From assembly GCF_008033135.1 (NCBI RefSeq), contig NZ_CP041335.1:1367925-1431924 (forward strand): a stretch of 64,000 nucleotides of DNA. The letters are read 5' to 3'. How positions within the stretch are numbered: the first letter of the stretch is position 1; each line of letters starts with the position of its first letter. The DNA comes from Chitinolyticbacter meiyuanensis. GTDB taxonomy: Bacteria > Pseudomonadota > Gammaproteobacteria > Burkholderiales > Chitinibacteraceae. Positions 22,424-38,626 of the stretch are shown here, piece after piece. The notes beneath the pieces were generated by a model. The model worked only from the letters and a program-made list of their open reading frames with translations, made no database searches and was not told where the DNA came from. The translations under genes and the position numbers were made by a program.

Positions 22424-22426
22424 ACG

Positions 22427-23188
22427 CTACTGCAGCTGGTGGCGTGCCTTGAACGCCTGCTCCATCCGCTGCAGATCGCCACTGGCTTTCAACGCGGCCA
22501 TGCCGGCATCGAAGCGGGTGCGTAGTCGTTCGGCTTCCGGATGTTTGAGCGAGAAGCCGAGAAAGAAGCGGGCACGGTTGACCTGGCCCACGCGCTTGAT
22601 CTTGCCGCGAAAGGCCGGCTCCTGCCGGATCAGGAGCTGCGCTGGCGTGGCGTTGAGCAACGCGTAATCGACCCGGCCGCTCAGCAGCTTGCGCAACTGC
22701 GCCTCGTCGCTGGGCGAGTTGTCCTTGAGGATGCCGGCATCGTTCATGATCACCGATGGGTAGGTGTAGCCATTGGTCAGCGCCACGGTCTTGCCGACGA
22801 GATCGCTGCTGCCAAGGTTCTGCCCGCGGCTGTCTGCCCGCGCATAGATGGCGAGATCTTCCTCGATCAGCGGCGTGCGGGGCCAGAGGAAGCGGTCGCG
22901 GTTATAGCCGGTGATCTCGATGTTGAAGCAGGCCACGCTGGCGCCCTGTTCCACCTCGCGCAGGCAGCGGGCAAAGGGCACCACGTTGTAGTGCACGGTG
23001 ATGCCTTGGCTGGCGAACGCTGCGCGCACGAGCTCGGTGGCGTAGCCCTGCGCCTGGTTGCGCGCGCCGCGCCAGGAAAAAGGCTTCCAGTCGTCCTCGG
23101 CATTGATGGTGATGGTTTCGGCACTGGCGAGCACACTGGTCAGCAACAGCGCGCCGCAGGCGATCCATCTCGTCAGGCCGTCCACCAT
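22427..23188 (-). CDS. periplasmic solute-binding protein, family 3 (amino-acid ABC type)
   Basis: Signal peptide 'MVDGLTRWIACGALLLTSVLASA' and an SBP_bac_3-like body. Convergent with yejE at a 3-bp gap. Confidence 0.65.
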   Translation of the reverse strand: MVDGLTRWIACGALLLTSVLASAETITINAEDDWKPFSWRGARNQAQGYATELVRAAFASQGITVHYNVVPFARCLREVEQGASVACFNIEITGYNRDRFLWPRTPLIEEDLAIYARADSRGQNLGSSDLVGKTVALTNGYTYPSVIMNDAGILKDNSPSDEAQLRKLLSGRVDYALLNATPAQLLIRQEPAFRGKIKRVGQVNRARFFLGFSLKHPEAERLRTRFDAGMAALKASGDLQRMEQAFKARHQLQ

Positions 23189-23290
23189 CGTGCTCCCTCG
23201 CGTCGCCACCGGAGAGGTCCGGTACTGGTACAACCTTACAACATATGGCCACGAGGTCGAAACCGGACAGCCCGGCGGCGCGCCGGCCGT

Positions 23291-23617
23291 TTAGAGGAAG
23301 AACGGCACGAAAATCATCACCAGGCAGGCGATCCAGGCGTAGCCCAACCCGCGTGTGAAATGGCACCAGTAGCGGTGTCGCGCACTCGGCAGCTCGGCGA
23401 TGTAGGCCGAGCGCAGCAGCGGTGGCATCACCGTGATCGCGCGAAATTCCTGGCCGATGTTGCTGTCCATGGCGCCGAGGATGTTGTCGACCAGTTGTGG
23501 GTAGTGGCGTTGGAACACGTCGTAAAGCCGCACGCATAGATATAGGTAAGCGATCGAACCCAGCAGTGTGCCGAGGATGCAATAGCCGACCACGTATTCG
23601 ACTAGGAACTCACGCAT
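23291..23617 (-). CDS. small hypothetical membrane protein (108 aa)
   Basis: Two predicted TM segments and high GC3 codon bias. Overlaps the upstream ORF by 8 bp. Confidence 0.4.
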   Translation of the reverse strand: MREFLVEYVVGYCILGTLLGSIAYLYLCVRLYDVFQRHYPQLVDNILGAMDSNIGQEFRAITVMPPLLRSAYIAELPSARHRYWCHFTRGLGYAWIACLVMIFVPFFL

Positions 23618-24023
23618 GTGCTGCCTCCTCGGCGGCTGGCATCACGGTATCGCCGATGTGGCGCGCCATATAGAGATAAAGCGCGACATACCAAGCCATG
23701 CCGAACAGCGTGAACATCGCGTCGGAACCGCGCTCTGCAGCGGGATGGATGGCTGCGAGCAGCGCAAAAAGTACGACGATGGCCACGATGCCGATCACCA
23801 GCACCATGATGAAATGCAGCATGGCGACGAAACCGATGCTCAGGTACTTGGCGAGAAACTGGGTGCCTTGTTTGCCACCGTTGGCGTTGAAGCACCACCA
23901 GGTGCCCCAGATCGGAATGGCGATATTGGTGGCGCTGTTCAGGTAGCGCCAGAAACCGCTGGTGTCATCGGGGGAATAGCCGATCAGCTCGACCGCCGCA
24001 GCGTTGAGCGCGACGAATATCAA
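23610..24023 (-). CDS. hypothetical Trp-rich membrane protein (137 aa, TTG start)
   Basis: Strong GC3 coding bias. The first in-frame start is TTG, immediately after a TAG. TM segments present. Confidence 0.4.
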   Translation of the reverse strand: MIFVALNAAAVELIGYSPDDTSGFWRYLNSATNIAIPIWGTWWCFNANGGKQGTQFLAKYLSIGFVAMLHFIMVLVIGIVAIVVLFALLAAIHPAAERGSDAMFTLFGMAWYVALYLYMARHIGDTVMPAAEEAAHA

Positions 24024-24134
24024 CTAAATAGAGAAACTGCTGGTACTCGGAAAGACCATGTGTACGCAGGTGCTGCTTCAGCGGTTGGAGTCGCCAGAAA
24101 TACATGGGGTGCCTCGTTGGGTCGGATGGCGTTG

Positions 24135-24725
24135 TCAGCCGCGTGCGCGTTCGAGCAACAGCAACATGGTCAGCGCCAGCGTGATGGCGCGTTCGGGCTC
24201 GTCGCCCAGTGGAACGTGGCGCTCCAGCACGTAGCGGCCTTCGAAGAAGGCGGCTTCCTTGCGCAGGCTCATCAGCACACGGCCGGTGTGGTCGCGCACG
24301 TCATACTGCGGATGCAGGAAGTACCCCGACAGCATCCCGACTACCGGAATCTCCTCGACGAGACCGTTGGCAAAGCGCACCCAAGGGTTGGCCTCGCTGA
24401 CCTCCAGCGTGCCGAGCCCCGGCAGCTCGATCTCGTAGCTGGCGCGCCACAGCGAGCGCATGCCGCGCCGGCGCAGCTGCGCCAACCGGCTGCCCGCCTG
24501 ATCGGAGACGCTATAGCTTGCCGAGAAATCGATGATGCGATCGGCATCGATGCGATAGAGCGGCCGGGTCTGTGCCTCGTCGGCAAACAGCGTGACCGAT
24601 TCCTTGAACTTGAACAGCTTTTGCTTGGCATGAAACAGCAGCGTGCCATCGGCATCGCGGGCGGACAGCTGCTGGGCGATCGCGAGAATCTTGAACGAAA
24701 ACTCGACGGGAAAGCGGGTGGGCAT
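24135..24725 (-). CDS. LURP-one-related / YxjI-family protein (tubby C-terminal-like, scramblase-like fold)
   Basis: 'FKILAIAQQL...LLFHAKQKLFKFKESVTLFADE' resembles B. subtilis YxjI ('KQKLFSWGDSFTIYDE'). C-terminal hydrophobic tail. 5 bp downstream of the giant ATPase gene. Confidence 0.6.
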   Translation of the reverse strand: MPTRFPVEFSFKILAIAQQLSARDADGTLLFHAKQKLFKFKESVTLFADEAQTRPLYRIDADRIIDFSASYSVSDQAGSRLAQLRRRGMRSLWRASYEIELPGLGTLEVSEANPWVRFANGLVEEIPVVGMLSGYFLHPQYDVRDHTGRVLMSLRKEAAFFEGRYVLERHVPLGDEPERAITLALTMLLLLERARG

Positions 24726-24730
24726 GGCTG

Positions 24731-27700
24731 TTACTCCGTGGTGTCGGCCTTGGCCGGCTTTCTGGTGGCGCGATTGAGCGTCGCATCCATGGTCTTGATC
24801 TGTTCGCCGATCAGTTTGACCTTGTCCCAGATGTCATGGTCGAGTCGGATCTTGTGCTGCATGGCGCTGATCACGGGGATCAAGGCGTTTTCATAGGCAT
24901 GACCCAGCGCCTGCAGCACTGACAGCAGCTCCGGCTGTGGCGGCACGGTGATCTGCGGCTGGCTGTCGCGCAGCGCCTGCTCCAGCGCAACGAGCCCGTC
25001 GCGCCAAGTGCGGGCCAGCAGCTTGCTGCTGGTTTCGCCGGTGGCCAAGTGCTTTTCGATCTGGCCGATGGCGGCGGCGATCTGCTGGCCGCTGTCCTGG
25101 TTGGCGAGCCGCGCGCTGATGTCGCCGAGCGCGCTGACGATATGCGAGACCTGCTGCGCCAGCTTGGTGGCACCGTCGGCGTCCGAGCCGCCCATGCGCT
25201 TGTGGTGCAGGAAATCGCGCTTGATCTGCGCCCAGCGCTCGGCCTCTTGAGCGGTGAGGACGCCTTGCAGCTCGGCCAGCTTCAACAGGTTTTCCTCGGC
25301 GCCGTGGGTGAGTGTCTGTGCTTCGCCGAGGTAGTGATCGCGCACCATGGCGGCAAGCTCGGTCTCGTTCATGATGGCGGAGACCTTGATCGCCAGCTTG
25401 GCCATGTTGCGATAGCTGCCCTGCAGCTTGAATGGTGGCTCCACACGGTAGGCATCGGCTTGCGCCGCCGAGGCGATATAGGCGGCGTTCACCTTCATCA
25501 GCACTTCGCGCACGGCGAACAATTTTTGCAGCACCGCCACGATCTCGCCCGCTTCGGCCGCGCTGTAGCCGTGCTTGAAGTCGGTGAGCGGCACGGCGTC
25601 GCCGCTGGCCTGGCGCAGGAACAGCTGGATGTCGGCCGGATCGCGGTGTGACAGCGGCGCAAGCACCGGATTGGCGGTGAGGCTGTTCTCGATGTACGAC
25701 AGCGCGAACAGTGCTTCCTTGCCGGAGAGCACATCGCCCAGGTTGTAGATGTCGGCGCGGTTGGCCAGCATGTCTGGGATACGGAAGGCTTCGCCAGTCT
25801 CGGTATACGGGTTGCCGGCCATCACCACGCAGAAGCGTTTGCCGCGCAGATCATAGCTCTTGGCTTCACCTTTCCAGATGCCCTCAATGCGACGGGTGCC
25901 GTCACACAGCGCGATGAAACGCTGCAGGAATTCGGGCGAGGTGTGCTGGATGTCGTCGACGTACAGCATCACGTTGTTGCCCATTGCCAGGCCAAAGTTC
26001 AGCCGCTCCAGCTCTTGGCGCGCCGCGCTGCTGTCGGCCTGGGCCGGATCGAGCGAGGTGACCTTATGGCCGAGTGCCGGGCCGTTCACGCGTACGAACA
26101 CCAGACCCAGCCGGTTGGCCACGTACTCCATCAGCGTGGTCTTGCCGTAACCCGGTGGCGAAATCAGCAGCAAGAGGCCCATCAGGTCGCCACGCCGCGA
26201 TTCGCCAGCGGTGCCGATCTGCTTGGCGAGATTGTCGCCGATCAGCGAGAGGTAGACCTCGTCGATCAGCCGGTTGCGCACGAAGCCTGAGAGCGGCTTG
26301 GCCTGATATTGCTCCAGCCGTAGCGTCCGGCGGGTGCTGTCGACGATGTCCTGACGCAGCGCCTGCAGCGTGGTGAAGGCGGGTACCACGGTGGCGTCGT
26401 AATCGGTCAGCCGCGCGCGGAATTCGTTGAGATCGAGCGCGAGCCCGCCATTGACGACGCGCGGATGCGCGCCGACGAGGCCGTCCACGGTGCCGGTCAG
26501 CGCCACGCTGAGCCGGTTGCGCGGCAGCTCCGTCAGCAGCAGCGCCGCGGCTTCCGGTGCGTAGCCCACGGGCAGGCCGTGGCTGCTCGCCAGCGCTTCG
26601 CACCAGTGCAGCGCCAGCGCCCAGCGCTCATGCAGGCTGCCGGTCTGCAGCCCGTCGCGCAGCACGCCGATCACGCCGCGCCGCTCCAGCTCGGTTTGCA
26701 GTGTGGACACCAAGTGCTGGGCATCGCCGCTGGCGAGCCATTCGGCGCTGCCACTGGTCAACTCGGCAATCAGGTAGTCGACCAACTGCTCGCGCGTTGC
26801 CGGCTCGAGCGTGAAGCCTTCACGCGCGCAGAACGCGTCGAGCTGGCCGGCAAGGTTGTCCACCAGTGCCTGCAACGCCTTGCCTTCACCGAACTCGGCA
26901 CGGATGCGGTGCGCGTTGTCGGCACGGGTACGCCAGCCCGCCTTGTCGTTCTCCCAGATGCCATGCGCCCAGAACAGCGCGGCAAGGCCACGCGGTAGCG
27001 GGCCGAAACGCAGCAGCCCGGCTTCGCGATCCATCGGTAGCAAGGCGGCGAGCAGGGCGGCAGCGTCCACATCGTGTACGCCCTTCTGGTAGCCCTCGTG
27101 ATAGCGGGTTGCAGCGAAGTCACGCACCAGCGGCGTGAGCCCGGTGTCCGACAATCGCGCCGCTTCCAGCGCGGCGGCATCGAGCTCGCCCGCATGCATG
27201 GCGGCGAGCATGCGCCAGGCCAGGTATTCGGCGCGGTAGACCAGGTCGTTCTCCGACACCAGCTGCTGCGGCCAATAGGGCCGGAGTGCCAGCAGGCGTT
27301 CGTCGGCGAGCGGTTCGAAGTAGTCGGTGCCGGTCAGGTGCAGCGCCAGCGCATCGTCGCGATGCACCAGCGTCAGATCGAACGGTTGGGTGGTAACGGC
27401 AAAGGTGTGGCGACCCAGGCGGATGCCGTCGGCGCTGAACAGCTCGCCCTTGTCGCGCTGAATGCGCACCGCGTTGTCGCGCAGCGAGGTGAGCCGGCCT
27501 TCCAGCGTATCGGCTTGCACCGTGTCGTTCAGTCGGCGCAGATCGCCGATCAGGCCGCGCAGCTTGTGCACCATCGGATCGGCGGCGAAGTAGCTGTGCA
27601 GCTCCTCGGGCGAGCTGAAGCGCGAAAGCCGCTTCTCGATGCTCTCGACGATGCGGCGGGCGGCGGCGGCCAGCGATTGGGCGCGTTGCTGGCGGGCATC

Positions 27701-29992
27701 GAGCAGCGTCTGCCGCCGGCTGGCGAAAGCGTCGTAGACGGCATCGCGCTTGGCGACGATGTCGGCGAGGAAGGTGTCCTGACCGCCGAAGCGGGTTTCC
27801 AGCTCTTCCAGCTGGGTCAACAGCTGCGTGAGCGCTTCGTCGCAGCGTTCCGGGCTGTCGGCCAGGTCGAGTGCGTTGGCTACGCTCTGGCCGAACAGCT
27901 TGAACTGCGCGCCAAATTCGGCACTGGCCTCGCGTACTGCGAGCTGGTCGCGCTGGGCCCGGGCGCGGGCGCGCACCTGGTTGAGTCGGGCATAGACCTC
28001 GCCGATATCATCGAGGATGCGGGTGCGCACGGTGGCATCGCCGCTGTCCAGTCCGGCCAACAGCTCGGTCAGCAGGTCGAGACCGCTGGCGGTGCCGTCG
28101 AGCGCGGTCAGTTGCGGCGTCAGCGCGGCCACGGTCGGGATGCCCGGCAGGGCCGTGGCGATCGCATCAAGCTCGCCGTGGTAGCCGGCGAAGGCCTGTG
28201 GCGCGCCGAGAAAGCGCACCGTCTCGTCGGACAGCCGCTTCTGTTCGGCGGCAAGGCCAGCGTCGATGGCCTGCAGCCGTGCCGCATCGATATAGCGCTG
28301 CTCGGAGAGGCCCAGCAGCTCGCCGCGCACGGCGCGCAAGCGGGCCAGTGCATCGACGAACTGCTGCGGCGCCTTCCAGATGGTGGCGGCGATGTCGGTG
28401 AGCAGCGCCTTGTTCTGCGCTTCCATCTTTGCCAGCGCGGTATCGGCAGCGTGGCGGATGGCGGTGACCTTGTCGAACTCGTCGAGCGTCAGCCGCGCGG
28501 TGTCGGCGATGGTCTTGAGCGCGCCGCCGAGCTGGCCGGCTTCGGCCTCGTCCAGCCAGAAGTAGCCATCCTGCAGCCGGGTGATGGCGCGGATCAGGTC
28601 CTCGTAGTGCAGCCGGCTCGGGCTCTGTTCGCGCGTGGCGCGGGCGATGGCATAGAGCTCGGACAGTCCACGCACCAGCTCCGGATTGCCGATACGGCCG
28701 AAGAAGCCGGGTGGTGGCGCCTTGGCGGCGTATTCGTCGCTGCAGAATGGTGTGGTCCACAGCTGCATCGCGTGATTGCGTGTCGCTTCCTCGCCTTCGG
28801 CGTTGAACAGCAGCACGCGGCCATCGTCGAAGCGGGCGTAGCCGTTGCTGAACAGCGGTGAGGACAGTGCCTTGTCGATCAGGTTGTAGGCCAGCAGCGC
28901 ATAGCGGCCGGCCTCGGCATCGTGGAACACGTACAGCACATCCTCGCCATTGGGCGAGCGCAGCATGCGCTTGAACCGCAGGCCGGTGACATCCTCGGTG
29001 AAGGTCTTGTATTCGCCGCTCTGCAGGTAGCAGCCACCGGGAAAGACGATGCCGTGATCCTCGGGCAACTGCACGCAGGAATCGCCGATGCCATCGATGC
29101 GTGTCACCGCCTGGGTACGGGTGTTGAACACCAAGTAGCGATACGCCGTTTCGCGATAGGGCAGGATCTTGAGCAGGATCAGCGCGCCCAGTCGGGCGTA
29201 GCTGATCTCGGCGTCGGTCAGCGACTGGCTGGCATCGTCCACCGGCTCGCTGTAGATGCCACGGCCGACATCGGTGTTGTTCTCGACCTTGATCGTCAGG
29301 TCGCCGTTGATGGTTTCGACGAACAGCGCATCAAGGATGTTGATATGCGGATGCTTGCCGTTGACATGCTGCTCGCGGCCGGTGGCGATCCATTCGAAAT
29401 CGTGCGACGGCGGCGGTGCGATATCCCGCTCGCCCCGGTTGTCGATGTATTGGGTGACGGCCCCATCGCGCCCAAGCTGCCAGCGGAACACCCGCAGGTC
29501 GCTGGCGCGGGCGCCGATCTGGAACGCGGCGAGCAGCTTGTCGCCAGTGACACGCAGCTGGCGCAGGCTGGCGTGCTTGTAATAGGCGTAGAGCTCGCGG
29601 AAGTCGGCAGCGAAGCGTGGGTCATCGAGAAAGGTGCCAGCCGTGGCGACGGCTTCCAGCTCGACCGCATCGTCATTGCCGGCAAGCCGGTACAGGCTGA
29701 ACACATCGTCGACGCGCGTTTCCTGGCGCAGGCCGATATAGACGTTGTAACCGAACAGCAGCAGCTCTCCGACCCGCACGATGTCGCGCGCTACGCAATT
29801 GTTCTCGGTGCGGGCACGGGTGCGTGCCAGCAGGCGCAGGTCGGCCCGGCCGAAGGCGGCGAGCCGCGCCTCGTTCAGCGTGCCGGCTGCGCCCAGCAGT
29901 ACCTCACCCTGCTGGGACAGGCGCTGCTTCAGCAACTCGTAGCCGCCGCTGGCGGCGATGTCCTGGTCGATTTCCGGAAAGGTGCTCATCAA
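24731..29992 (-). CDS. giant (1753 aa) alpha-helical protein with a single MoxR/dynein-like AAA+ module; families of this kind are sometimes annotated 'DNA repair ATPase'
   Basis: Walker A 'LLLISPPGYGKTTLMEY' encoded near 26150-26180. 'CVVMAGNPYTE...RADIYNLGDV' sensor/Arg-finger-like region. Long coiled-coil-like regions on either side. Confidence 0.6.
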   Translation of the reverse strand: MMSTFPEIDQDIAASGGYELLKQRLSQQGEVLLGAAGTLNEARLAAFGRADLRLLARTRARTENNCVARDIVRVGELLLFGYNVYIGLRQETRVDDVFSLYRLAGNDDAVELEAVATAGTFLDDPRFAADFRELYAYYKHASLRQLRVTGDKLLAAFQIGARASDLRVFRWQLGRDGAVTQYIDNRGERDIAPPPSHDFEWIATGREQHVNGKHPHINILDALFVETINGDLTIKVENNTDVGRGIYSEPVDDASQSLTDAEISYARLGALILLKILPYRETAYRYLVFNTRTQAVTRIDGIGDSCVQLPEDHGIVFPGGCYLQSGEYKTFTEDVTGLRFKRMLRSPNGEDVLYVFHDAEAGRYALLAYNLIDKALSSPLFSNGYARFDDGRVLLFNAEGEEATRNHAMQLWTTPFCSDEYAAKAPPPGFFGRIGNPELVRGLSELYAIARATREQSPSRLHYEDLIRAITRLQDGYFWLDEAEAGQLGGALKTIADTARLTLDEFDKVTAIRHAADTALAKMEAQNKALLTDIAATIWKAPQQFVDALARLRAVRGELLGLSEQRYIDAARLQAIDAGLAAEQKRLSDETVRFLGAPQAFAGYHGELDAIATALPGIPTVAALTPQLTALDGTASGLDLLTELLAGLDSGDATVRTRILDDIGEVYARLNQVRARARAQRDQLAVREASAEFGAQFKLFGQSVANALDLADSPERCDEALTQLLTQLEELETRFGGQDTFLADIVAKRDAVYDAFASRRQTLLDARQQRAQSLAAAARRIVESIEKRLSRFSSPEELHSYFAADPMVHKLRGLIGDLRRLNDTVQADTLEGRLTSLRDNAVRIQRDKGELFSADGIRLGRHTFAVTTQPFDLTLVHRDDALALHLTGTDYFEPLADERLLALRPYWPQQLVSENDLVYRAEYLAWRMLAAMHAGELDAAALEAARLSDTGLTPLVRDFAATRYHEGYQKGVHDVDAAALLAALLPMDREAGLLRFGPLPRGLAALFWAHGIWENDKAGWRTRADNAHRIRAEFGEGKALQALVDNLAGQLDAFCAREGFTLEPATREQLVDYLIAELTSGSAEWLASGDAQHLVSTLQTELERRGVIGVLRDGLQTGSLHERWALALHWCEALASSHGLPVGYAPEAAALLLTELPRNRLSVALTGTVDGLVGAHPRVVNGGLALDLNEFRARLTDYDATVVPAFTTLQALRQDIVDSTRRTLRLEQYQAKPLSGFVRNRLIDEVYLSLIGDNLAKQIGTAGESRRGDLMGLLLLISPPGYGKTTLMEYVANRLGLVFVRVNGPALGHKVTSLDPAQADSSAARQELERLNFGLAMGNNVMLYVDDIQHTSPEFLQRFIALCDGTRRIEGIWKGEAKSYDLRGKRFCVVMAGNPYTETGEAFRIPDMLANRADIYNLGDVLSGKEALFALSYIENSLTANPVLAPLSHRDPADIQLFLRQASGDAVPLTDFKHGYSAAEAGEIVAVLQKLFAVREVLMKVNAAYIASAAQADAYRVEPPFKLQGSYRNMAKLAIKVSAIMNETELAAMVRDHYLGEAQTLTHGAEENLLKLAELQGVLTAQEAERWAQIKRDFLHHKRMGGSDADGATKLAQQVSHIVSALGDISARLANQDSGQQIAAAIGQIEKHLATGETSSKLLARTWRDGLVALEQALRDSQPQITVPPQPELLSVLQALGHAYENALIPVISAMQHKIRLDHDIWDKVKLIGEQIKTMDATLNRATRKPAKADTTE

Positions 29993-30033
29993 CGATGGCC
30001 TTGTAGACGGGGCAGGGTGGGCAGGTGGCTGGA

Positions 30034-30582
30034 TCAGCCCAGCGTGGAATCGCTTGCCTGCAGGTAGGCCAGCAGCACAGCGCGCAGCGGGTGGCCGGCC
30101 AGCCAGGCGCGCACGCGCTGCGCCTCGGCGTAGTCGGCCTCACCCAGTCGGGCGCGCCAGGTGGCATCGAGCCGTTCGCGCGATTCGGTTTCACGTACCT
30201 CGCGCTGGCCGCGATCGCTGAGGATATGCAGCAGCGAGTGCGTCAAACCCTGGGCGCGCAGCGCCGGCCATTCCTCGCCATCGAGCCAGACCTTGCGGCA
30301 GGCGCTGCAGCGATCGAGCCTGAACTTGAGGTGCCCGGCAACACGGTACTTCTGCAGCAGCTGTGCGCAGTCTGGGCAGCGCAGCGCGCGCGGCGAGGTC
30401 TCCTCCAGCAGCTCGGCAGTGGCCGCCAGCGCCTCGGTAGCCTGCTGCGGCGCTTGTGCCACCCAGCGGCGATAGTCGTCGAGCGCGAGCCAGGTGCCTT
30501 GGCAGGTGGGGCATTGCTCGGCCATCAGGCCGGGCTCCAGCGATTCACGGCGGGTTTCGGTGTTGCAGCTGAGGCAATACAT
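30034..30582 (-). CDS. double zinc-ribbon protein (YdjG-like)
   Basis: Two CxxC...CxxC ribbons ('CLSCN...CPTCQGTWL' and 'CPDC...CSACRKVWLD'). Start lies 9 bp after the upstream ORF stop. Confidence 0.6.
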   Translation of the reverse strand: MYCLSCNTETRRESLEPGLMAEQCPTCQGTWLALDDYRRWVAQAPQQATEALAATAELLEETSPRALRCPDCAQLLQKYRVAGHLKFRLDRCSACRKVWLDGEEWPALRAQGLTHSLLHILSDRGQREVRETESRERLDATWRARLGEADYAEAQRVRAWLAGHPLRAVLLAYLQASDSTLG

Positions 30583-30591
30583 GGGTATGTC

Positions 30592-30909
30592 CTACCAGTA
30601 GACGAAGAAGTAGAGCAACAAGGCAGTGGCATTGCCGAGCATGGTGTAGCGCAGCAGGCGTACTCGCCGAAACAGGCGCCGCTCCAGTTCCGGAATCCGG
30701 CTCCAATCGGGATTGCTATCGGCGAACTCGTTGACGAGGCTCATGCTTTTGGCGATACCGCAGGCGGGATCAAAGTCAGCAGGCGGTGCCTTGTCATCTG
30801 CACTGAGCAGGTCCGGGCAACGGTGCAGGATCACCCGGTAAGCGCGGTTGCACTGATCCGAGTACAGGGCGAACAGCAGGAACAGGAGCGTGAACAGGGC
30901 AAGACCCAC
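30592..30909 (-). CDS. small two-TM membrane protein (GTG start preferred)
   Basis: The track ORF runs 60 bp into the flotillin gene. A GTG at 30909 preceded by GGAGAAG gives a ~105-aa protein with N- and C-terminal TM helices. Confidence 0.4.
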   Translation of the reverse strand: MGLALFTLLFLLFALYSDQCNRAYRVILHRCPDLLSADDKAPPADFDPACGIAKSMSLVNEFADSNPDWSRIPELERRLFRRVRLLRYTMLGNATALLLYFFVYW

Positions 30910-30964
30910 GGCGCTTCTCCGGTGATACCTGAGGCGGGGCACGCCATGGGCGGCCCCGCGTTGC

Positions 30965-33037
30965 TTATTTGCGACCCAGCGAGCCGAGCAGCTTGCCGAG
31001 TGCCTCCTGTGTTTCCGCGTTGCCATCCTTCATCACCCGATGCAGCAGTGCGGCGGCGGACAGGTTCTGCAGCTCGTCGGCGGACTGGCCGAGGCCGCCG
31101 AGCAATTTGCCGGCGTCGTCGATCAGGTTGCGCTCGCCGGCGCGATGCGGTGCGGTGGCGAGCTGCAGCGTTTCGCTCTTGCCGATGGCGCCGTCGATGG
31201 CCTTGCCGATGCCCAGCGCATTGACGAAGCGCTGGAAGTAGTCGCCCTCGCCGCCGACGATGTCGATACGCGCGTTGCCCAGCGCCTTGCCCAGCACCTC
31301 GGCCTGTTCCCGGGCAATGCTGGTGTTGGCGTCGATGGCCTTGAGCGTCTGCACATGGGCGTTGTCGAGGCGCATGCGGAATTCCTCGTGGGCACGGGTG
31401 TCCTCGCTCATTGCCTTCATTGCTTCGAACTTCGAATGCAAGCCCTTGGCTTCGGCGGCGAACTTGGCTTCGATCGCGTGCGCGTCGGCCGTCTTGACCG
31501 TGACGTCGGCGAGGCCCAGCTTCTCGCGGCCCGACGCTTCGGCTTCCAGCTTGAGGCGCAGCGCCTCGGCCTCCGCTTCGCCCATGCGGCTGACCGCGTC
31601 GGCGTCGGCCATCTTCACCTTGGCGGCGATCATGCCGTCCTTCTCCTTGGCATCGGCCGTTACCAGCATCACCTTGGCGTCCGCCAGGCCCGGGGCGGCG
31701 GACAATGCCTCGACGCCCTCAGCTTCACGCTTCTTGGCCTCGGCCTCCTTCTCGGCGACCTTGAGCTTGGCGTCGGCCAGCGTGGTTTCCTCGACGGCCT
31801 TGTGCTTGGCGCGGCGCTCCTCGGCTTCGGCGGCCTTCACTTCCAGCACCAGCTTTTCCTCGGCCTTGGCTTCGGCCGCAATCACCGTGGCCTTGCGGGT
31901 GCGATCGGCCTCGGCGACCACGCGCAGCTCCTTGATCGCCTCTTCCTGCTCGGCCACCGTGCGTTCCACCACGATGCGCTCACGGATCACGTCGGCGATG
32001 GCCTTCTTCTCGATCTCGATCGCCTTGTCGGCCTCGATGCCCTGCAGTGCCACTTCGCGCTCGCGGTCGACCACTTCCAGGTCGCGGGCACGGGTGACCT
32101 TTTCCTCTTCGATGGCGACGGCGCGCTTGCGGTTGTTCTCCGCCACTTCCTTCTCGCGCTGCATGTTCTCCTGCTGCACGGCGATCAGCTGCTCGGCCTG
32201 GATGCGCGCAACCTCGGCCTTGGCGTGTTCCTCGGCGGAGACGCGGTCGGCCTCGGCCTGCTCGCGGGCCCGTACGCTGGCAATCTCGCGCTGCTGGCGC
32301 GCCTCGGCGTCGGCCTGCTGGCGCTGCAGCTCGAGGATGGTCTCGGCGGTTTCGACATCCTTCTTCTTGATCTGCATTTCCTCGTTGCGCTGCAGTTCAT
32401 TGGTGGTGACGTGCTGCACCGCGGTGAGCTCAGTGATCTTGCGGATGCCCTGCGCGTCAAGGATGTTGTTGCGGTCGAGCTTGTCCATCGGTGTCTGCTC
32501 GAGGTAATCGATGGCCGCGTCTTCCAGCACGTAGCCGGAGAGGTTGTCACCGATCTGGCGGATGATCTCGTCGCGGAACTTGTCGCGCGCCATGTAGAGA
32601 TCCTCGAAATCCATCGCCTTGCCGACGGTCTTCAGCGCCTCGGCGAACTTGGCGGCGAACAGCTCTTCCAGCGTGTCCTGGCTGGAGGCACGCTCACAAC
32701 CGACGGTCTGCGCCACGCGCAGCACATCCTCGGCTGTCTTGTTCACGTGGACGAAGAAGGTCACTTCGATGTCGGCGCGGATGTTGTCACGACAGATCAG
32801 GCCGGCGTTGCCCGAGCGCTTGATGACGATGGTCTTGAGCGAGATGTCCATCAGCTCCATCTTGTGGATCACCGGGTAGACCATGCGACCGGTGAAGGTG
32901 ACTTCCGGCTCGCTGCGCAGCGTGTTCACGATCATGCCGCGGCCCTGTTCGACCTTGTGATAGAACTTCACGAACAACAGGAATGCGCTGAAGACGAAGA
33001 AGGCGATGATGGCAATCGCCGTGATGATGGCGGTCAT
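30965..33037 (-). CDS. yqiK: flotillin-family (SPFH/band 7) protein, YqiK-like
   Basis: N-terminal TM, then SPFH domain ('MVYPVIHKMELMDISLKTIVIKR') and a long A/E/K-rich coiled-coil tail. Confidence 0.85.
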   Translation of the reverse strand: MTAIITAIAIIAFFVFSAFLLFVKFYHKVEQGRGMIVNTLRSEPEVTFTGRMVYPVIHKMELMDISLKTIVIKRSGNAGLICRDNIRADIEVTFFVHVNKTAEDVLRVAQTVGCERASSQDTLEELFAAKFAEALKTVGKAMDFEDLYMARDKFRDEIIRQIGDNLSGYVLEDAAIDYLEQTPMDKLDRNNILDAQGIRKITELTAVQHVTTNELQRNEEMQIKKKDVETAETILELQRQQADAEARQQREIASVRAREQAEADRVSAEEHAKAEVARIQAEQLIAVQQENMQREKEVAENNRKRAVAIEEEKVTRARDLEVVDREREVALQGIEADKAIEIEKKAIADVIRERIVVERTVAEQEEAIKELRVVAEADRTRKATVIAAEAKAEEKLVLEVKAAEAEERRAKHKAVEETTLADAKLKVAEKEAEAKKREAEGVEALSAAPGLADAKVMLVTADAKEKDGMIAAKVKMADADAVSRMGEAEAEALRLKLEAEASGREKLGLADVTVKTADAHAIEAKFAAEAKGLHSKFEAMKAMSEDTRAHEEFRMRLDNAHVQTLKAIDANTSIAREQAEVLGKALGNARIDIVGGEGDYFQRFVNALGIGKAIDGAIGKSETLQLATAPHRAGERNLIDDAGKLLGGLGQSADELQNLSAAALLHRVMKDGNAETQEALGKLLGSLGRK

Positions 33038-33118
33038 GGTTGCTCCCTGATGAGAAGGCGATACGTCGCTGCGGGCCCGCGCGGGGCGGGTCTGTTGTAC
33101 GGGGTTGAAATTGCGGGA

Positions 33119-33733
33119 TCAGCTGTCGTCGAGTGCGGCGATGGTGTAGCTGCCGCTGGCCGCGTCGTAGTCGACGATGACGGCGCGCGTACCGCGGGTG
33201 AGGGTGTTGGGGGTGCTGGCGCGGACCCGCAGGTTGATGCTGGCGCCGGCTCCTGCCACCTCGGCCTGGCCGAAGCGCTCGGTCACTTTCAGCGTCAGTA
33301 CCTTGCACGCGCTGCCGACCAGTGCCGGATTGCGGATGGCGTTGTGGCTGACGAACAAGCCGCGCATCGGCCGCAGCACGGCGGCGGTGACCGGCAGGGC
33401 CACCGCGAAGCTGAGCAGCAGCAATGCTGCGCCGGCCAGGTAGTGCAGCCAGCCGGGCAGCCAGCCCACCAGATATTGATCGGCAAGGCAGGACACCAGC
33501 CATCCGGTTAGCGTGATCAGGCTGATGACGATGGAGAACGGCACGCCGCCCAAGCCCAGCGCCATCAGCTTGCCGGAAAGGTCGCCAAAGTCGCCGGCTT
33601 CCCCATCGACATCGAGCGCATCGATATCGACGAAACCGACCATGGCCGCGATCCAGTACAGCAGCACCACACCTAGCAACACCGTCCAGATGGCGGTGGG
33701 GAAGCGGCTGATGGTGTCGAGGAAACTGCTCAT
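33119..33733 (-). CDS. yqiJ: NfeD-like / YqiJ-family (DUF1449) membrane protein with C-terminal OB-fold
   Basis: Multi-TM N-terminus and a soluble C-terminal beta-rich domain. Sits upstream of flotillin, as in E. coli yqiJK. Confidence 0.7.
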   Translation of the reverse strand: MSSFLDTISRFPTAIWTVLLGVVLLYWIAAMVGFVDIDALDVDGEAGDFGDLSGKLMALGLGGVPFSIVISLITLTGWLVSCLADQYLVGWLPGWLHYLAGAALLLLSFAVALPVTAAVLRPMRGLFVSHNAIRNPALVGSACKVLTLKVTERFGQAEVAGAGASINLRVRASTPNTLTRGTRAVIVDYDAASGSYTIAALDDS

Positions 33734-34320
33734 GGCGTGGCTCCTTCTATTTGCCCGGCGCGGATCAGCCGTGGCGTACCTAGGTGCGACAGATAGAGCG
33801 TGCCGCGCAGGCCGCGCTGCGCATCGATTACGTCAACTTGCCAGCCGCTGTACCAGACATGGCGCAACGTATCTGGCTGCAGCACGAAAGCCGGGCCGCC
33901 GATCTGCTCCGGCGTGGCGTAGAGCGCTACCTTGTTGTTGCGCCCGATGGCGATCACGGTGTGCGCATACACCTGCCGTTGCGGCACGGCAGCGACCATG
34001 CCGGTCGGCGCCCAGAACGTGGCCGGCAGTTGCGCCACCGGCACATCCGCGAGGCTGACGCCAGAAAACGTAGGGTGCGTGTCGTCGGCGCTACCGAGCG
34101 AATAGCTGGCGACTGTTCCGGATTGGGTACCCGCCGGTTGCTGCAGTCGCGGCCACTGGTTGTAGGCCACCAATGCCAGCAGACCGGTGATGCCAGTGAG
34201 CACAAGCAGCGTGCGAGCGCGACGGCGCAATACCGGCAATCGATGGAGCCAGTCGGTAAACCAGGCGCTGCCCATGGCCAAGCCGGGGGGCAGCATGTCG
34301 CGTGATTCGCGTTGAGTCAT
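33730..34320 (-). CDS. membrane-anchored periplasmic protein, hypothetical
   Basis: Single N-terminal TM 'LLVLTGITGLLALVAY', then a ~150-aa soluble domain. Stop overlaps the yqiJ start as ATGA. Confidence 0.45.
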   Translation of the reverse strand: MTQRESRDMLPPGLAMGSAWFTDWLHRLPVLRRRARTLLVLTGITGLLALVAYNQWPRLQQPAGTQSGTVASYSLGSADDTHPTFSGVSLADVPVAQLPATFWAPTGMVAAVPQRQVYAHTVIAIGRNNKVALYATPEQIGGPAFVLQPDTLRHVWYSGWQVDVIDAQRGLRGTLYLSHLGTPRLIRAGQIEGATP

Positions 34321-34344
34321 CGGTGGGCCTTCGGGTTGATGAGG

Positions 34345-34680
34345 TCAGGTGTGCGGTGCTTGTTGTCGGGCGAATACCAGCAGTTCGCCCTGCACCCGCT
34401 CCTTGATTTCCAGCCGTTGTTCCGGGGCGAGCCCGAAGCGCGCGGCGAGTGCGATGTAATCGTCGTCCGACAGCGTGACGGTGAGCCTGGGGCGCTTGGG
34501 GCGGCTGGTGACCGGCAGGTCGAGCACCTTGCGGATCTGGTCCGAGTTGCTGAGGTTGTGCTCGAAGGCGGCGCGGCGCACGGCCTGCATCACTTCCTCT
34601 TCCACGTCGAAGGCCACCTGCACCGCGCGGATGGCGGGCGCCGAGCTCTCCCAGCGCGGTGGCAGCCTTTTGTTGCTCAT
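34345..34680 (-). CDS. small protein with two tandem ribbon-helix-helix-like repeats, putative DNA-binding
   Basis: 'IRAVQVAFDVEEEVMQAVRRAAFEHNLSNSDQIRKVL' and 'RLTVTLSDDDYIALAARFGL' each fit a beta-strand plus helix RHH pattern. Overlaps the PspA stop by 4 bp. Confidence 0.4.
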   Translation of the reverse strand: MSNKRLPPRWESSAPAIRAVQVAFDVEEEVMQAVRRAAFEHNLSNSDQIRKVLDLPVTSRPKRPRLTVTLSDDDYIALAARFGLAPEQRLEIKERVQGELLVFARQQAPHT

Positions 34681-35390
34681 TCGGCTTGCTCGCCGTGGCC
34701 GGCTTCACGTCGCGCCTTGAGGCGGGCGAGCACGGCCTCCTTGCGGTTGGCGTTGTCACCGATGCCGGCCGCGGCCAGTTTCTGTTCCAGCGCCTTGTTG
34801 CCGAACTCGGCATCGAGCTCCTCGGCGGCCTTCATCCGGTCCGCCATCTGCGTATGCCGCTCCTTGATCCGTTCCAGTGATTCGCGGGCATTGCCGAGCT
34901 TGGAGGCGCCGCTGCCCATGCTTTGCGAGATCGATTCGGTGGCGCGGTAGACGCTTTCGGTGGTCTTGGCGACGGCGAGTTCGCGCTCGTGCTCGCGCAC
35001 CCGGGTCTCGGCCTGCCGGATCAGATCCTTCAGGTTGGCAATGTGGCCGGCGAATTCACGTTGTGCCTGCTGCTGGGCGGCGCGCTCTGCCTCCAGCTCG
35101 GCAATGCGGCTGGCAACATCGACGGCGAGGTTTTCCTCGGCCTTGTCGAGCGCGGCCAGCGCGTGTTCCTCAAAGCGGGCGATCTCCTTGTCGAGTCGCT
35201 CGATCTCGCGGCCGGCGGCTTTTTCCTGCGCCATGACCAGCGTCAGGTCCTGCTTGGCGCGCACCAGCGCGGCCTTCGATTCGTGGATTTCCTGCTCGTA
35301 GATGCGGGTGGCATTGGCGTCCACCACACTCTCGCCGATTTCGCGTGCGCTGCCCTTGAGGGCGGTCAGGATCTTGCTGAAGACGGACAT
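34677..35390 (-). CDS. PspA/IM30-family protein (YjfJ-like)
   Basis: 'MSVFSKILTALKGSAREIGESVVDANATRIYEQEIHESKAAL' aligns with the PspA N-terminus. Coiled coil throughout. Confidence 0.85.
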   Translation of the reverse strand: MSVFSKILTALKGSAREIGESVVDANATRIYEQEIHESKAALVRAKQDLTLVMAQEKAAGREIERLDKEIARFEEHALAALDKAEENLAVDVASRIAELEAERAAQQQAQREFAGHIANLKDLIRQAETRVREHERELAVAKTTESVYRATESISQSMGSGASKLGNARESLERIKERHTQMADRMKAAEELDAEFGNKALEQKLAAAGIGDNANRKEAVLARLKARREAGHGEQAE

Positions 35391-35407
35391 GTTGGGCTCC
35401 TAGTCGA

Positions 35408-35821
35408 TCAGTGCAGGTAGTCGGCCATGGCTTCGAGGGCATCGACTGCGTTGTCGCTCAGCGCCAGCAGATCCTGGGCGAGATCGTCGGCACCGGCATC
35501 GCGGGCCAGTGCGCCGTACAGCAGGTACTTGTCGCCGATGCGGCCGAACGAGGACAGTGGAATGGCCACATTGAGGTCGAGCATGGCTTCGAGCAGGGCG
35601 GTACGGCGGGCTGGGGCAATGTCGTGCTCGGTCCAAAGGTAACAGATGCACAACAGCTGGCTGTCAGCTTCCGTGATGAAGATCGGCAGCTCTTCCCGGC
35701 CGCTGACCGCGACCTTGTACACCACGACCTCGCCAGGAATGCGCTCGACGTCAAATGCGCCCAGCTGGCTGGCAAGTCGTTGTCCTGCCTCGGAAATGCG
35801 CTGTTGCAATGCGTGGTCCAT
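35408..35821 (-). CDS. DUF2170-family protein (YjfI-like)
   Basis: Start at 'MDHALQQRI' with a GAGGAG RBS. Paired with the PspA homolog, as in E. coli yjfIJ. Confidence 0.7.
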   Translation of the reverse strand: MDHALQQRISEAGQRLASQLGAFDVERIPGEVVVYKVAVSGREELPIFITEADSQLLCICYLWTEHDIAPARRTALLEAMLDLNVAIPLSSFGRIGDKYLLYGALARDAGADDLAQDLLALSDNAVDALEAMADYLH

Positions 35822-35847
35822 GGCGACTCCTCGTGATGGATGCATTC

Positions 35848-35890
35848 AACATAATCGGCTTGACATATGATGTCAAGACATTTTATGTCT
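35848..35890 (-). promoter_or_regulatory. sigma70-like promoter (TTGACA-17-TATGTT) for the yjfI/pspA-like operon, overlapped by two GACAT-N3-ATGTC palindromes
   Basis: Minus-strand -35 at 35876..35871, -10 at 35853..35848. Palindromes at 35859-35877 (CTTGACATatgATGTCAAG) and 35876-35890 (AGACATtttATGTCT). Confidence 0.55.
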
Positions 35891-36056
35891 TGGTGGTGCG
35901 TGAAACCCGACACGGTGACAGCCTGCGTAGACTGGCTTGCGCTAGGTTGATGTGTAAGTTTTTAAGAGAGTAGCTTGCGTCAGGCTGCGATGGTGCAGCC
36001 TGTCTTTCGGTCGATGCAAGCAGCGTGACGGAGACGGGTGTGGTTGCAACAGGCGG

Positions 36057-36830
36057 TCAACGGCGGCGCGAGCGGAAGTAGCTGTGATTCGCGTAAAAGC
36101 TGGCGTCTTGCTGCGGCCACCAGCCCGGGATGCCGAGGTAGGGCAGCGGCGGCAATTGGCGCGGTGTGGTCAGCCAGCCCGCGGAGAGGGATGTGCAAAC
36201 CTGGCTATCCAGCTGTGCCATGCGCGCAGCCAGCGGCAAGGCGAAGAAGGCAGGCTCGACCTGCACCGGCCAGCATTTGCCGGTGAGGCCGGTGAATGGC
36301 GCCAACAGGTTCTCGAAGGTGGCGTGGCCGAATACCAGTGCATCGATATGGCGACCCCAGTCGTCACGGCGGTCGACGAACAGTGTGGACCATTCATGCC
36401 CGACCAGCAGCTCCAGCAGGGCCGGATCGCTGTAGGGCACGATCAGCCCGCATTCGTCGAACAGCGTGGCGGCATCGCGCACCGGCCCACGCGGCCCTTG
36501 GCCGGTATCCGGCAGCAGTCGATAGTGCAACGCATTGAGCGCGGCCTTGCTGCGGGGGTAGCTGTGCCAGACCAGCGCGTTGAAGCAGTCGTGCCAATCA
36601 TCGCGCGTAGCAATGCGGCCCAGCTCGTAGATCTCCGCCTCGTAGTAACGACTGAGGCTGGATGGATCGACGCACTGCAGTGGCAGGCCGGACTGGGTGT
36701 GGACCGGTGGCAGGCGTTGCCAGTCGGCGAGCGCTGGCACGCGTGGCAGCTGCGCCGTGAGCGGCGCGAGCAAAGCAAAGGCCGGATGCGCCAGCGCATC
36801 CGGCCAGTGTTGCCCTGCGATTCCCGGCAT
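36057..36830 (-). CDS. DUF3025-family protein
   Basis: 257 aa. 'WHDCFNALVWHSYPRSKAALNALHY' conserved DUF3025 block. Confidence 0.65.
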   Translation of the reverse strand: MPGIAGQHWPDALAHPAFALLAPLTAQLPRVPALADWQRLPPVHTQSGLPLQCVDPSSLSRYYEAEIYELGRIATRDDWHDCFNALVWHSYPRSKAALNALHYRLLPDTGQGPRGPVRDAATLFDECGLIVPYSDPALLELLVGHEWSTLFVDRRDDWGRHIDALVFGHATFENLLAPFTGLTGKCWPVQVEPAFFALPLAARMAQLDSQVCTSLSAGWLTTPRQLPPLPYLGIPGWWPQQDASFYANHSYFRSRRR

Positions 36831-37307
36831 TTACAGCTTGCCGAGTTCCAGCCGGCCCTCGCCAAGTACCGGGGCGCCAGCGTTGGCGTCATCGAGCGCC
36901 TTTACGGTCAGGAAATAGGCCTTGCCCGGGGTGCAGGGCGGCAGGTAGTTGCCGTCGCCGCCTTGCGGGCCGGAAACCAGCGAAAAGCCACCGGGCAGCT
37001 TGCCCTGCGCCTGCACGCTGGGTACCTGCGCGCTGGCGACGCCCTTGTTCACCGCGAACAGCAGCTTGCCATTGCTGCCTCCGCCGCGCTCGTTGAATTC
37101 CAGCAGGATGGCACCGGTGCCGGGGGGCAGGTCGAACACATTGAGGGCCGGCGTCGAGCCTTGGCCGCCGAGCTTGGCGCATTGCTGGCCGGGTGGCACG
37201 GCCACGCCGTTCCAGGCCGGGTTGGCGAAGCGCACCGTCAGTCTGGGGCCGGCCAGGGCGGGCAGCGCGGTGAGGGCGAGCAGGGCACAGAGCAGAGGGC
37301 GTTTCAT
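36831..37307 (-). CDS. secreted hypothetical protein
   Basis: Signal peptide 'MKRPLLCALLALTALPALA'; Gly-rich beta-type body. Directly abuts the DUF3025 start. Confidence 0.45.
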   Translation of the reverse strand: MKRPLLCALLALTALPALAGPRLTVRFANPAWNGVAVPPGQQCAKLGGQGSTPALNVFDLPPGTGAILLEFNERGGGSNGKLLFAVNKGVASAQVPSVQAQGKLPGGFSLVSGPQGGDGNYLPPCTPGKAYFLTVKALDDANAGAPVLGEGRLELGKL

Positions 37308-37430
37308 GGTCCGTTCATTCCATATGACGACAGGGGCATACCCTTTACGCGAATTGTAACGGATATGCCCCTGCCGTAACGGTGATCGGGTCAACAGCGT
37401 TGACGACTCACCGTGTGAAAACGCACGCGA

Positions 37431-37931
37431 TCAGGAGAGCGCGGCGAGCGCGGTGCCGTAATTCGGCTCGTTCTTGATCTCGGCGACAAGTTCGCTGTGC
37501 AGCACCTTGTCGTTCTCGTCGAGCACCACCACGGCACGAGCAGCCACGCCGGTGAGCGGACCCGAGGCGATATCGACGCCGTAATCGTTCAGAAACTGGC
37601 GACCGCGCATGGTCGACAGCGTCACCACGTTGGCGAGGCCTTCCGCGCCGCAGAAGCGGTTCTGGGCGAACGGCAGGTCGGCCGAGATGCACAGCACCAC
37701 GGTGTTGCTGAGCTGGCTGGCGGCTTCGTTGAAGCGGCGCACCGAGGTGGCGCAGGTGGGGGTGTCGATGCTCGGGAAAATATTCAGTACCTTGCGCTTG
37801 CCAGCAAAGCTGGCAAGGGTGACATCGGCGAGGTCCTTGCCGACCAGGGCGAAGGGTTTGCCGGTGTCGCCGGCCTTGGGGAACTGGCCATTGACCGTGA
37901 CGGCGTTGCCGCCGAGGGTGACTTCAGACAT
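37431..37931 (-). CDS. tpx: thiol peroxidase
   Basis: '[12 protein letters not shown]' peroxidatic cysteine and the resolving Cys in 'NRFCGAEG'. Confidence 0.9.
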
Positions 37932-38021
37932 CGTTTTCTCCAGTGGGCTTGAAACGGGGGTGAACAAAAGGCCCTGCCTCCAGATGGGGGCAAGGCCCAT
38001 GATGACAAGCGGGAATGACGA

Positions 38022-38558: not shown

Positions 38559-38626
38559 GCTGTGGTCCTCGTTGTCCGGTTGACGTTCCAGTATCGCCAG
38601 CACCCCCGTCGAATACAAGGCGGGGC

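Follow-up and report, generated by a model that had tools for sequence, protein, structure and literature searches.

The twelve co-directional minus-strand open reading frames (ORFs) at 23291-35821 of a 64-kb stretch of DNA from Chitinolyticbacter meiyuanensis, a betaproteobacterium of the Chitinibacteraceae (the window, by which the whole of the analysed stretch is meant) form a cluster, numbered here g01 to g12, which can be regarded with considerable confidence as a copy of a widespread operon for the maintenance of the inner membrane, made up of two ancient modules and most likely repressed by the product of g03, with the g10 gene and a set of small ORFs as recent additions. The conserved core is already known, and the cluster is a copy of a described operon class. 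The combination of genes is thus not uncharacterised, as the preliminary description of this DNA had supposed, given that the class is found in the portion of PMC11237479 devoted to it, and the bac operon in the portion of PMC10948618 concerned with those genes.

The limits of the cluster were set by its promoter and by comparative data, given that the adjacent genes on either side are likewise on the minus strand and co-directionality alone is insufficient. The GC content of the window is ~64%, and the intergenic distances from g01 to g12 are 17, -4, 24, -4, 81, ~55, 9, 44, 5, 111 and -8 bp, with 4-bp overlaps at the g02/g03 and g04/g05 junctions and with a ~55-bp gap between g06 and g07 that assumes the 105-aa start of g07. 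The sole sigma-70-like site within 22300-37500 lies on the minus strand at 35876-35848, and its TTGACAT core is unchanged across four genera, while no sigma-54 GG-N10-GC element of the kind proposed for bacA was found at a suitable position. The start of g01 was corrected from 35845 to the ATG at 35821 (137 aa), given that the -10 box ends at 35848, that a GAGGAG Shine-Dalgarno sequence precedes 35821, and that independent gene calls also give 137 aa. The picture drawn earlier, of twelve co-directional ORFs separated by short gaps behind one promoter, was thus confirmed, and the domains assigned to them were recovered as well, i.e., DUF2170, PspA/IM30, a YqiJ/flotillin pair, a double zinc ribbon, a single AAA+ domain and a LURP-one/tubby fold. 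The cluster is a real unit for inner-membrane maintenance, probably with a single promoter. No Rfam family was found in 20000-40000 and no tRNA in the 64-kb window. A perfect 8-bp hairpin (CAGGCTGC-N6-GCAGCCTG, 35975-36010), which lacks a T-run, lies between a DUF3025 gene and the cluster promoter, and could insulate the cluster from upstream transcription.

The comparative data derive from a scan in which each GTDB species was represented by one genome; a relative of the g09 ATPase was found in at least 558 species, and 80 loci were kept. Three loci from sister genera (Chitiniphilus, HSL-7 and Andreprevotia) bring the set to 83, and a locus of Chitiniphilus shinanonensis was added later. The genes were mapped by targeted hidden Markov models (HMMs) and phmmer, as an all-against-all clustering of the ORFs was dominated by shadow ORFs from the GC-rich gene of the ATPase. 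When the genes are written as A (DUF2170), B (PspA), R (g03-like), N (YqiJ-like), F (flotillin), Z (zinc ribbon) and X (ATPase), the order is fixed throughout the 83 loci as A-B-(R)-N-F-(Z)-X, and the main architectures are NFX (31 loci), ABNFX (20) and ABRNF(Z)X (~13), spread over Beta-, Gamma- and Zetaproteobacteria, Myxococcota, Actinomycetota and Clostridia. The ATPase follows a flotillin gene in all of the loci with upstream DNA (79 of the 83, and 76 of the 80 from the genome scan, where the four loci without flotillin are contigs that end at the ATPase), and in each of them the flotillin gene stands immediately before the ATPase or the zinc-ribbon gene. YqiJ-like genes were found in 74 loci and DUF2170 genes in 40, a number close to that for PspA; 16 loci have the regulator, and 19 have a zinc-ribbon gene, mostly between flotillin and ATPase. 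The enrichment of the giant ATPase next to flotillin, YqiJ-like and, often, PspA genes, which had been proposed before any comparison, therefore holds (79, 74 and ~40 loci, respectively). The conserved part of the window cluster comprises seven genes, i.e., those for DUF2170, PspA, the g03-like protein, the YqiJ-like protein, flotillin, the zinc ribbon and the ATPase, and, as the flanking genes vary among Chitinolyticbacter, Chitiniphilus, HSL-7 and Andreprevotia while the cluster is retained, it behaves as a cohesive unit.

The regulation of the cluster can be approached through two palindromes of the form GACAT-N3-ATGTC (GACATAAAATGTC and GACATCATATGTC), which enclose the -35 box of the cluster promoter. 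The motif occurs twice in the 64-kb window, both times at this promoter, where ~0.03 occurrences would be expected, and the two copies are invariant across four genera in the midst of surrounding sequence that has diverged. Across the 83 loci (1.82 Mb), it was found 26 times against ~0.8 expected, and it stands ahead of the first gene in 15 of the 16 loci that carry a g03 homolog and in one of the 67 that do not (Fisher p = 2e-14). Given this co-occurrence, g03 is a probable autorepressor of the operon, acting through these sites. At least 1125 homologs of g03 were found, with a Pfam domain in none, and Pfam gave no match to g03 itself. Of 25 relatives, four match FitA-like_RHH (best 2e-4), one RHH_1 (0.027, in the N-terminal unit) and one a NikA-like family, all of them weakly, RHH being the ribbon-helix-helix fold. 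The AlphaFold2 (AF2) model of g03 (pLDDT 82.5) is helical with no strands, and a Foldseek search with it returned nothing significant, the best matches being AvtR (TM-score 0.37-0.41) and chains of the F-plasmid relaxosome (TraY; TM-score 0.31-0.35), all at E > 4, both of which we take to be tandem-RHH proteins. A PDB profile search with g03 gave no significant match and hhalign found no internal repeat, so that a tandem-RHH identity is plausible at most.

A conserved N-terminal extension of ~50 aa, which reads SSAHYQRxFRQRLREQGLVKKEVWILPEHA...ERKLRQP in the BacA-type proteins, is present on the DUF2170 proteins of 22 of the 24 loci that lack g03 and in none of the 16 that have it (p = 2e-9). 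Pfam gave no match to this extension, in which the regulatory function of BacA might reside; the idea that it is homologous to g03 was dropped, there being no detectable similarity between the two. The mutual exclusion of the g03 gene and the extension may be new, as may the pairing of g03 with the GACAT-N3-ATGTC operator, which is not described in the portions of Ravi et al. 2024 and Wallart et al. 2024 that treat these operons.

The first of the two modules is made up of g01 and g02. In addition to its Pfam family, g01 matches the PDB entry 8q8o, a "DUF2170 family protein" (6.5e-7), and Escherichia coli YjfI (3e-8), although its score with the NCBIfam BacA equivalog (NF050185), 35.3 bits over positions 83-202 of the 206-position model, is far short of the 300 bits required, which rules it out as a BacA ortholog. 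The full-length match of g02 to E. coli YjfJ (1e-20) is far better than that to E. coli PspA (0.029), which places it in the YjfJ subtype, and a canonical PspA (TIGR02977) is ruled out by 16.8 bits against a cut-off of 243 bits. No PspB, PspC or PspF domain was found in the cluster proteins by the Pfam and NCBIfam scans. PspA itself is an ESCRT-III-like polymer that binds membranes. The succession of a DUF2170 gene and, directly after a 17-bp gap, a yjfJ-type pspA gene matches the first feature of the operon class of Ravi et al. 2024.

The second module joins g05 and g06 to the ATPase, and these three agree with the other features of that class, among them a 3-TM protein of the YqiJ/YuaF type ahead of flotillin. 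The family profile of g05, built from 21 homologs, aligns with E. coli YqiJ (hhalign 95%, E 2.5e-8) and weakly with the soluble domain of YuaF (2k14, E 0.62), while the Pfam NfeD model finds no match among the aligned family members. Three hydrophobic segments are present in g05. The full-length g05 and g06 sequences gave no match at all in Pfam or NCBIfam, probably as a result of composition filtering, whereas residues 1-215 of g06 match Band_7 above the cut-off (7.7e-11), the C-terminal Flot match (0.016) remaining below it. BLASTP aligns g06 with E. coli YqiK from residue 1 (1e-33, 27% identity over 451 aa), its N-terminal transmembrane (TM) segment covers residues 4-22, and a PDB sequence search with it gave no match. 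The ATPase itself, g09, is 1752 aa long when started at the ATG one codon inside a TTG ORF, has no TM segment, is 100% identical to an NCBI protein of C. meiyuanensis, and belongs to a family of more than 5600 homologs. Its Pfam matches are to DUF3686 (8.7e-194), AAA (1.3e-6) and AAA_22 (1.5e-6), the last two above their cut-offs, and its PDB matches are restricted to the P-loop region of AAA+ proteins. The motifs of an AAA+ ATPase domain can be recognised as Walker A (SPPGYGKTT), Walker B (hhhhDDIQH), sensor-1 (AGN) and an arginine motif (DMLANR). The Pseudomonas aeruginosa gene PA3728 is unnamed in the title or abstract of each of the eight papers that mention it. The coordinates of all of these features are collected in the table.

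Table. Features of the cluster, in window coordinates, and related features of other loci, in the coordinates of each locus
Feature	Position	Strand	Basis or comment
g01, DUF2170/YjfI-like, CesT/Tir-like chaperone fold, 137 aa	35408-35821	-	Pfam DUF2170 1.3e-24
g02, PspA/IM30 family, YjfJ subtype, 237 aa	34677-35390	-	Pfam PspA_IM30 1.1e-35
g03, putative DNA-binding regulator, RHH-like, 111 aa	34345-34680	-	co-occurrence with operator motif; weak RHH matches in relatives
g04, single-TM ORFan, 196 aa	33730-34320	-	hydrophobic segment 35-53; highest third-position GC; independent gene calls
g05, YqiJ-like (DUF1449/NfeD-like) 3-TM protein, 204 aa	33119-33733	-	hhalign to E. coli YqiJ
g06, flotillin-family SPFH protein (YqiK-like), 690 aa	30965-33037	-	Band_7 and YqiK matches
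g07, single-TM ORFan, probably ~105 aa	30592-30909	-	start GTG 30909 by independent gene calls, rather than 144 aa
g08, double zinc-ribbon protein with C-terminal helical domain, 182 aa	30034-30582	-	Pfam Zn_ribbon_TFIIB 8.6e-11, two stretches
g09, soluble ATPase, 1752 aa	24731-29989	-	DUF3686 (35-478), DUF7902 (599-682), one AAA+ domain (about 1262-1420)
g10, LURP-one/YxjI family, predicted tubby-like barrel, 196 aa	24135-24725	-	PF04525 homologs; AF2 model
g11, hydrophobic ORFan, 137 aa	23610-24023	-	hydrophobic segment 71-89
g12, two-TM protein, 108 aa	23291-23617	-	two hydrophobic segments
Sigma-70-like promoter TTGACA-17-TATGTT	35848-35876	-	directly upstream of g01; 10/12 positions match
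Two operator-like palindromes GACAT-N3-ATGTC	35862-35874, 35877-35889		15 bp centre to centre; overlap -35 box
DUF2170 genes with N-terminal extension (other loci)			L008, L009, L014-L016, L019, L024, L025, L027-L031, L038, L044, L047, L051, L052, L055, L056, L061, L066
~80-aa ORF between flotillin and ATPase (other loci)	L009 9589-9840, L015 9590-9883, L029 9563-9829, L031 9435-9824, L066 9475-9858		TerB/EF-hand-like, sub-threshold

Other loci of the set carry genes that are missing here. A conserved ORF of ~80 aa, with a sub-threshold TerB/EF-hand-like match (E 0.004-0.006), lies between flotillin and ATPase in pseudomonad and Lysobacter-type loci and has no counterpart in the window, and a gene with the PLD/HKD motif (…HMHHKFALFD…) follows the ATPase in ~12 loci (e.g., L005 15088-15831) and is likewise absent. 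On the megaplasmid pQBR103 (L091, NC_009444.1, 84437-97641), a complete yjfIJKLMC set of the E. coli type, with YjfI, PspA, (rhomboid), DUF2491, DUF350, DUF1190 and glutathionylspermidine synthase genes, is joined directly to the YqiJ-like/SPFH/ATPase triad, an arrangement which underlines the modular link of the PspA module with the flotillin-ATPase module. In Chitiniphilus (L081 20824-25241 and L087 15288-20591), phage-sheath-like genes, of a contractile tail or tailocin, were found ~5 kb beyond the cluster, with no equivalent there in the window.

The working of the cluster that we propose begins with the binding of g03 to the two palindromes over the -35 box, which would repress the operon until envelope stress relieved the repression. 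The first module would then supply DUF2170, as a CesT-like chaperone or regulator, together with the YjfJ-type PspA, and the second the YqiJ-like 3-TM protein, flotillin and the giant, soluble AAA+ ATPase with its DUF3686 region. SPFH scaffolds on the inner membrane would be formed by flotillin together with the YqiJ-like protein, while PspA would polymerise on damaged membrane under the control of its DUF2170 partner. By analogy with Vps4 acting on ESCRT-III, or FtsH in HflK/C cages, the ATPase could dock through its N-terminal DUF3686 region and use ATP to assemble, remodel or recycle the polymers. The LOR protein g10 (named after its Pfam family) and g04, g07, g11 and g12 are recent lineage-specific accretions outside the conserved machine. 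A more far-reaching version of this scheme, which we put forward tentatively and consider possible rather than likely, would make the YqiJ-like/flotillin/DUF3686 triad an ancient Vps4-like machine of many phyla for SPFH and, where present, PspA assemblies, with the tubby-like protein as a horizontally acquired, lipid-binding recruit in Chitinolyticbacter and Chitiniphilus and with the RHH-like repressor replaced in pseudomonads by the BacA extension.

Several points weigh against the reading of the cluster as a single maintenance operon of this kind. Co-transcription of the bac operon was shown experimentally in the related species P. aeruginosa, as the literature reports, while for the window it is predicted from the sequence, and the gaps of 81 and 111 bp could give room to internal promoters. 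As the NFX genes occur without PspA in 31 loci and A-B-R is divergent from NFX in two others (L069 and L079), the modules are able to work and to be regulated apart. No fold or family was matched significantly by the regulator g03, and its DNA binding is deduced solely from the co-occurrence with the palindromes. The invariance of the ATPase motifs, with Walker A and B identical or near-identical in all 83 loci, DMLANR in 82 and the AGN pattern in 63, was partly built in by the retrieval of the loci with the patterns GYGKTTLM and NVMLY[LV]DD. The Walker B of g09 (residues 1340-1349) has Asp at the usual position of the catalytic Glu, as in all 83 loci, and hydrolysis by such a DD motif may be slow or switch-like, while the biochemical role of the enzyme is one that we purely infer.

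Some of these same points would suit the alternative that two or three independent units, i.e., a yjfIJ-like pair with its regulator, a yqiJK-like pair with the ATPase, and unrelated downstream genes, merely lie side by side under separate regulation and share no mechanism. This alternative, which we consider improbable, draws on the fact that NFX is the commonest architecture and stands without A-B, which in turn stands without NFX in E. coli, as well as on the divergent loci, on the six other genes that separate A-B from NFX on pQBR103, and on the 81-bp gap ahead of the flotillin gene. It has to contend, on the other hand, with the adjacency and constant order of the two modules wherever both occur, in ~40 loci that represent many families, with the one promoter-like site and the 4-bp overlaps of the cluster, and with the junctions of the P. 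aeruginosa operon, all of which were positive by reverse transcription PCR (RT-PCR) and whose proteins respond together (PMC10948618).

The maintenance operon with recent additions also has to be set against the opposite alternative, in which all twelve genes would be one new integrated machine for membrane repair or anti-phage defence, an alternative which we consider very unlikely. The case for it is made by g10, which starts 5 bp past the stop of the ATPase, keeps this position in both Chitiniphilus eburneus and Chitiniphilus shinanonensis, and has a predicted LURP-one/tubby-like fold, i.e., a barrel around a central hydrophobic helix, a fold which binds lipids in eukaryotes. The Pfam LOR match of g10 itself remains below the cut-off (0.0077, 16.3 vs 24.5 bits), while all 120 of the homologs listed are annotated with PF04525, and its AF2 model (pLDDT 79; 12 strands and a helix at 174-194) has the tubby domain of TULP1 as its top PDB match (E 2.3e-4, probability 1.00, TM-score 0.53). 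An HMM made from the 120 homologs was matched, however, in a single one of the 83 ATPase loci, that of Chitiniphilus eburneus, i.e., in none of the 80 diverse loci and in one of the three from sister genera, the gene being absent next to the ATPase in HSL-7 and Andreprevotia. Outside Chitinolyticbacter and Chitiniphilus, no homolog was seen adjacent to the ATPase, and the three relatives examined from elsewhere have unrelated neighbours. The expectation of the preliminary description that LURP-one genes would be enriched beside PspA and flotillin genes thus failed. The next-closest relatives beyond the clade have ~55% identity and come from Gemmatimonadota- and Acidobacteriota-like metagenomes, those that are named, among the matches listed, being metagenome-assembled genomes of Gemmatimonadaceae, Pyrinomonadaceae and Longimicrobiaceae, which suggests that g10 was acquired horizontally.

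The small ORFs also argue against an integrated machine, as no homolog of g04, g07 or g11 was detected among the related loci, those of sister genera included. Neither Pfam nor NCBIfam gives a match for g04, nor is there a family match for g07, g11 or g12, and g12 has a homolog in Chitiniphilus eburneus alone among the related loci. The third-position GC favours the minus-strand coding frame for g04, g07 and g11, and, together with the independent gene calls, it suggests that g04 and g07 are real genes. At the position of g04, HSL-7 (L082 6394-6657) and Andreprevotia (L083 6056-6322) have an unrelated protein of 87-88 aa that combines a single TM segment with a CxxC…CxxC motif, and at that of g07, Chitiniphilus has an unrelated gene of 89 aa. 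An ATG ORF that begins at 24105 (MYFWRLQPLKQHLRTHGLSEYQQFLYLV...) is in a different frame from g11, which itself starts at TTG 24023 right after a stop codon, and this region may hold a frameshifted gene or a sequencing error.

A role in phage defence, which had also been suggested for the locus, was rejected, given that PADLOC returned weak and trivial coiled-coil and P-loop matches only (E of at least 0.0014) and that matches were found in none of 50,697 phage records and in 13 of 72,556 plasmid records. That g09 is a DNA repair ATPase in an incidental neighbourhood of membrane genes is hardly credible, as the NCBI and Pfam labels ("DNA repair ATPase", "ATPase involved in DNA repair") and the weak P-loop-region matches to RuvB are set against RuvB and CDC48 matches of ~40-50 residues around the P-loop, far below the family cut-offs, against near-universal flotillin and YqiJ-like neighbours with no DNA-repair gene recognised among those conserved, and against a full-text literature search in which no paper on DUF3686 was found.

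PspA and flotillins play a central part in the integrity of bacterial membranes, and for the dismantling or renewal of their assemblies, in place of a Vps4-like enzyme, the obvious candidate is the ATPase, which almost always follows flotillin in at least 558 species and is yet labelled as a DNA repair ATPase. The locus adds no new type of system, although it does separate the core genes from local additions, and it provides a compact variant with a sigma-70-like promoter, a candidate repressor and an operator, which could be switched easily in experiments. Beyond that, it is of interest for its unstudied ATPase and for the pairing of a candidate repressor with an operator.

Compared with known systems, the likeness to Vps4/ESCRT-III and FtsH-HflK/C is one of functional analogy, in which an AAA+ ATPase is here coupled genetically to both a PspA polymer and an SPFH scaffold. 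There is no homology to Vps4 or FtsH beyond the generic AAA+ core, and g09 differs from both in its 1752 aa, its DUF3686 N-terminal region, its DD Walker B, and the lack of a MIT or a protease domain. The pspA-ydjGHI operon of Bacillus subtilis likewise brings PspA together with an SPFH protein and a protein that carries two zinc ribbons; it has no AAA+ ATPase, however, while the window has no YdjH/TPM homolog. The earlier naming of g08 as YdjG-like is right as to its two CxxC...CxxC zinc ribbons only, given that g08 has no hydrophobic segment and a helical C-terminal domain, whereas YdjG, according to the section of PMC11237479 that treats it, has an NTF2-like domain and a TM segment.

The E. 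coli operons yjfIJKLMC and yqiJK hold homologs of g01/g02 (YjfI/YjfJ) and g05/g06 (YqiJ/YqiK), although the two pairs are ~1.2 Mb apart, with polyamine-related genes after yjfIJ and no giant ATPase after yqiK. The bac genes of P. aeruginosa (PA3732-PA3729 and downstream) are reportedly a subject of Mace et al. 2008, as cited by Wallart et al. 2024. According to Wallart et al. 2024 (PMC10948618), bacA-bacF of the PA14 strain form one operon by RT-PCR, in which all of the junctions were amplified, and proteomics found the downstream Bac proteins raised 6- to 13-fold when bacA was mutated. As in the window, bacABCDEF encodes a DUF2170 protein (BacA), a PspA-like protein (BacB), a YqiJ-like protein (BacC), flotillin (BacD) and then, most likely as BacE, the giant ATPase, while bacF would be the PLD-like gene. 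These last two assignments, by which PA14_16190/PA3728 would be the ATPase gene, draw on the published PA14_16190/16200 forward primer, which translates to IKVMDR and matches the C-terminus LPLIKVMHKK of the pseudomonad ATPase, and on the PLD/HKD-like gene that follows the ATPase in ~12 loci. The DUF2170 ORFs of the pseudomonad loci score 348 and 345 bits with the BacA equivalog, above its cut-off of 300 bits, and these loci are therefore bac operons. The BacA-type proteins have the 50-aa N-terminal extension that g01 lacks, and the bac operon, for which a dependence on sigma-54 has been proposed, lacks a separate RHH gene, whereas the window combines a sigma-70-like promoter with g03. The non-aeruginosa pseudomonad loci have the TerB/EF-hand-like ORF and the PLD-like gene, and no LOR gene.

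The closest comparison is that with the operon class which Ravi et al. 2024 (mSystems, PMC11237479) set out in section 19, where a CesT/Tir(DUF2170)-PspA pair is combined with a band-7/flotillin protein, a YqiJ/YuaF-like TM protein and a novel AAA+ ATPase, and where shorter operons of flotillin and YqiJ/YuaF, with or without the ATPase, are described as more widespread, a PLD/HKD gene being added in some proteobacteria. In this section, no regulator-operator pairing is given, and an RHH gene is mentioned for another operon class only. Relative to the class as described there, the RHH-like regulator with its operator, the zinc-ribbon gene, the three ORFan membrane genes and the LOR gene are additional in the window, while the PLD gene of some of its members is missing from the cluster. 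The five core genes are shared by both, and stand in the window in the same order as in ~40 loci.

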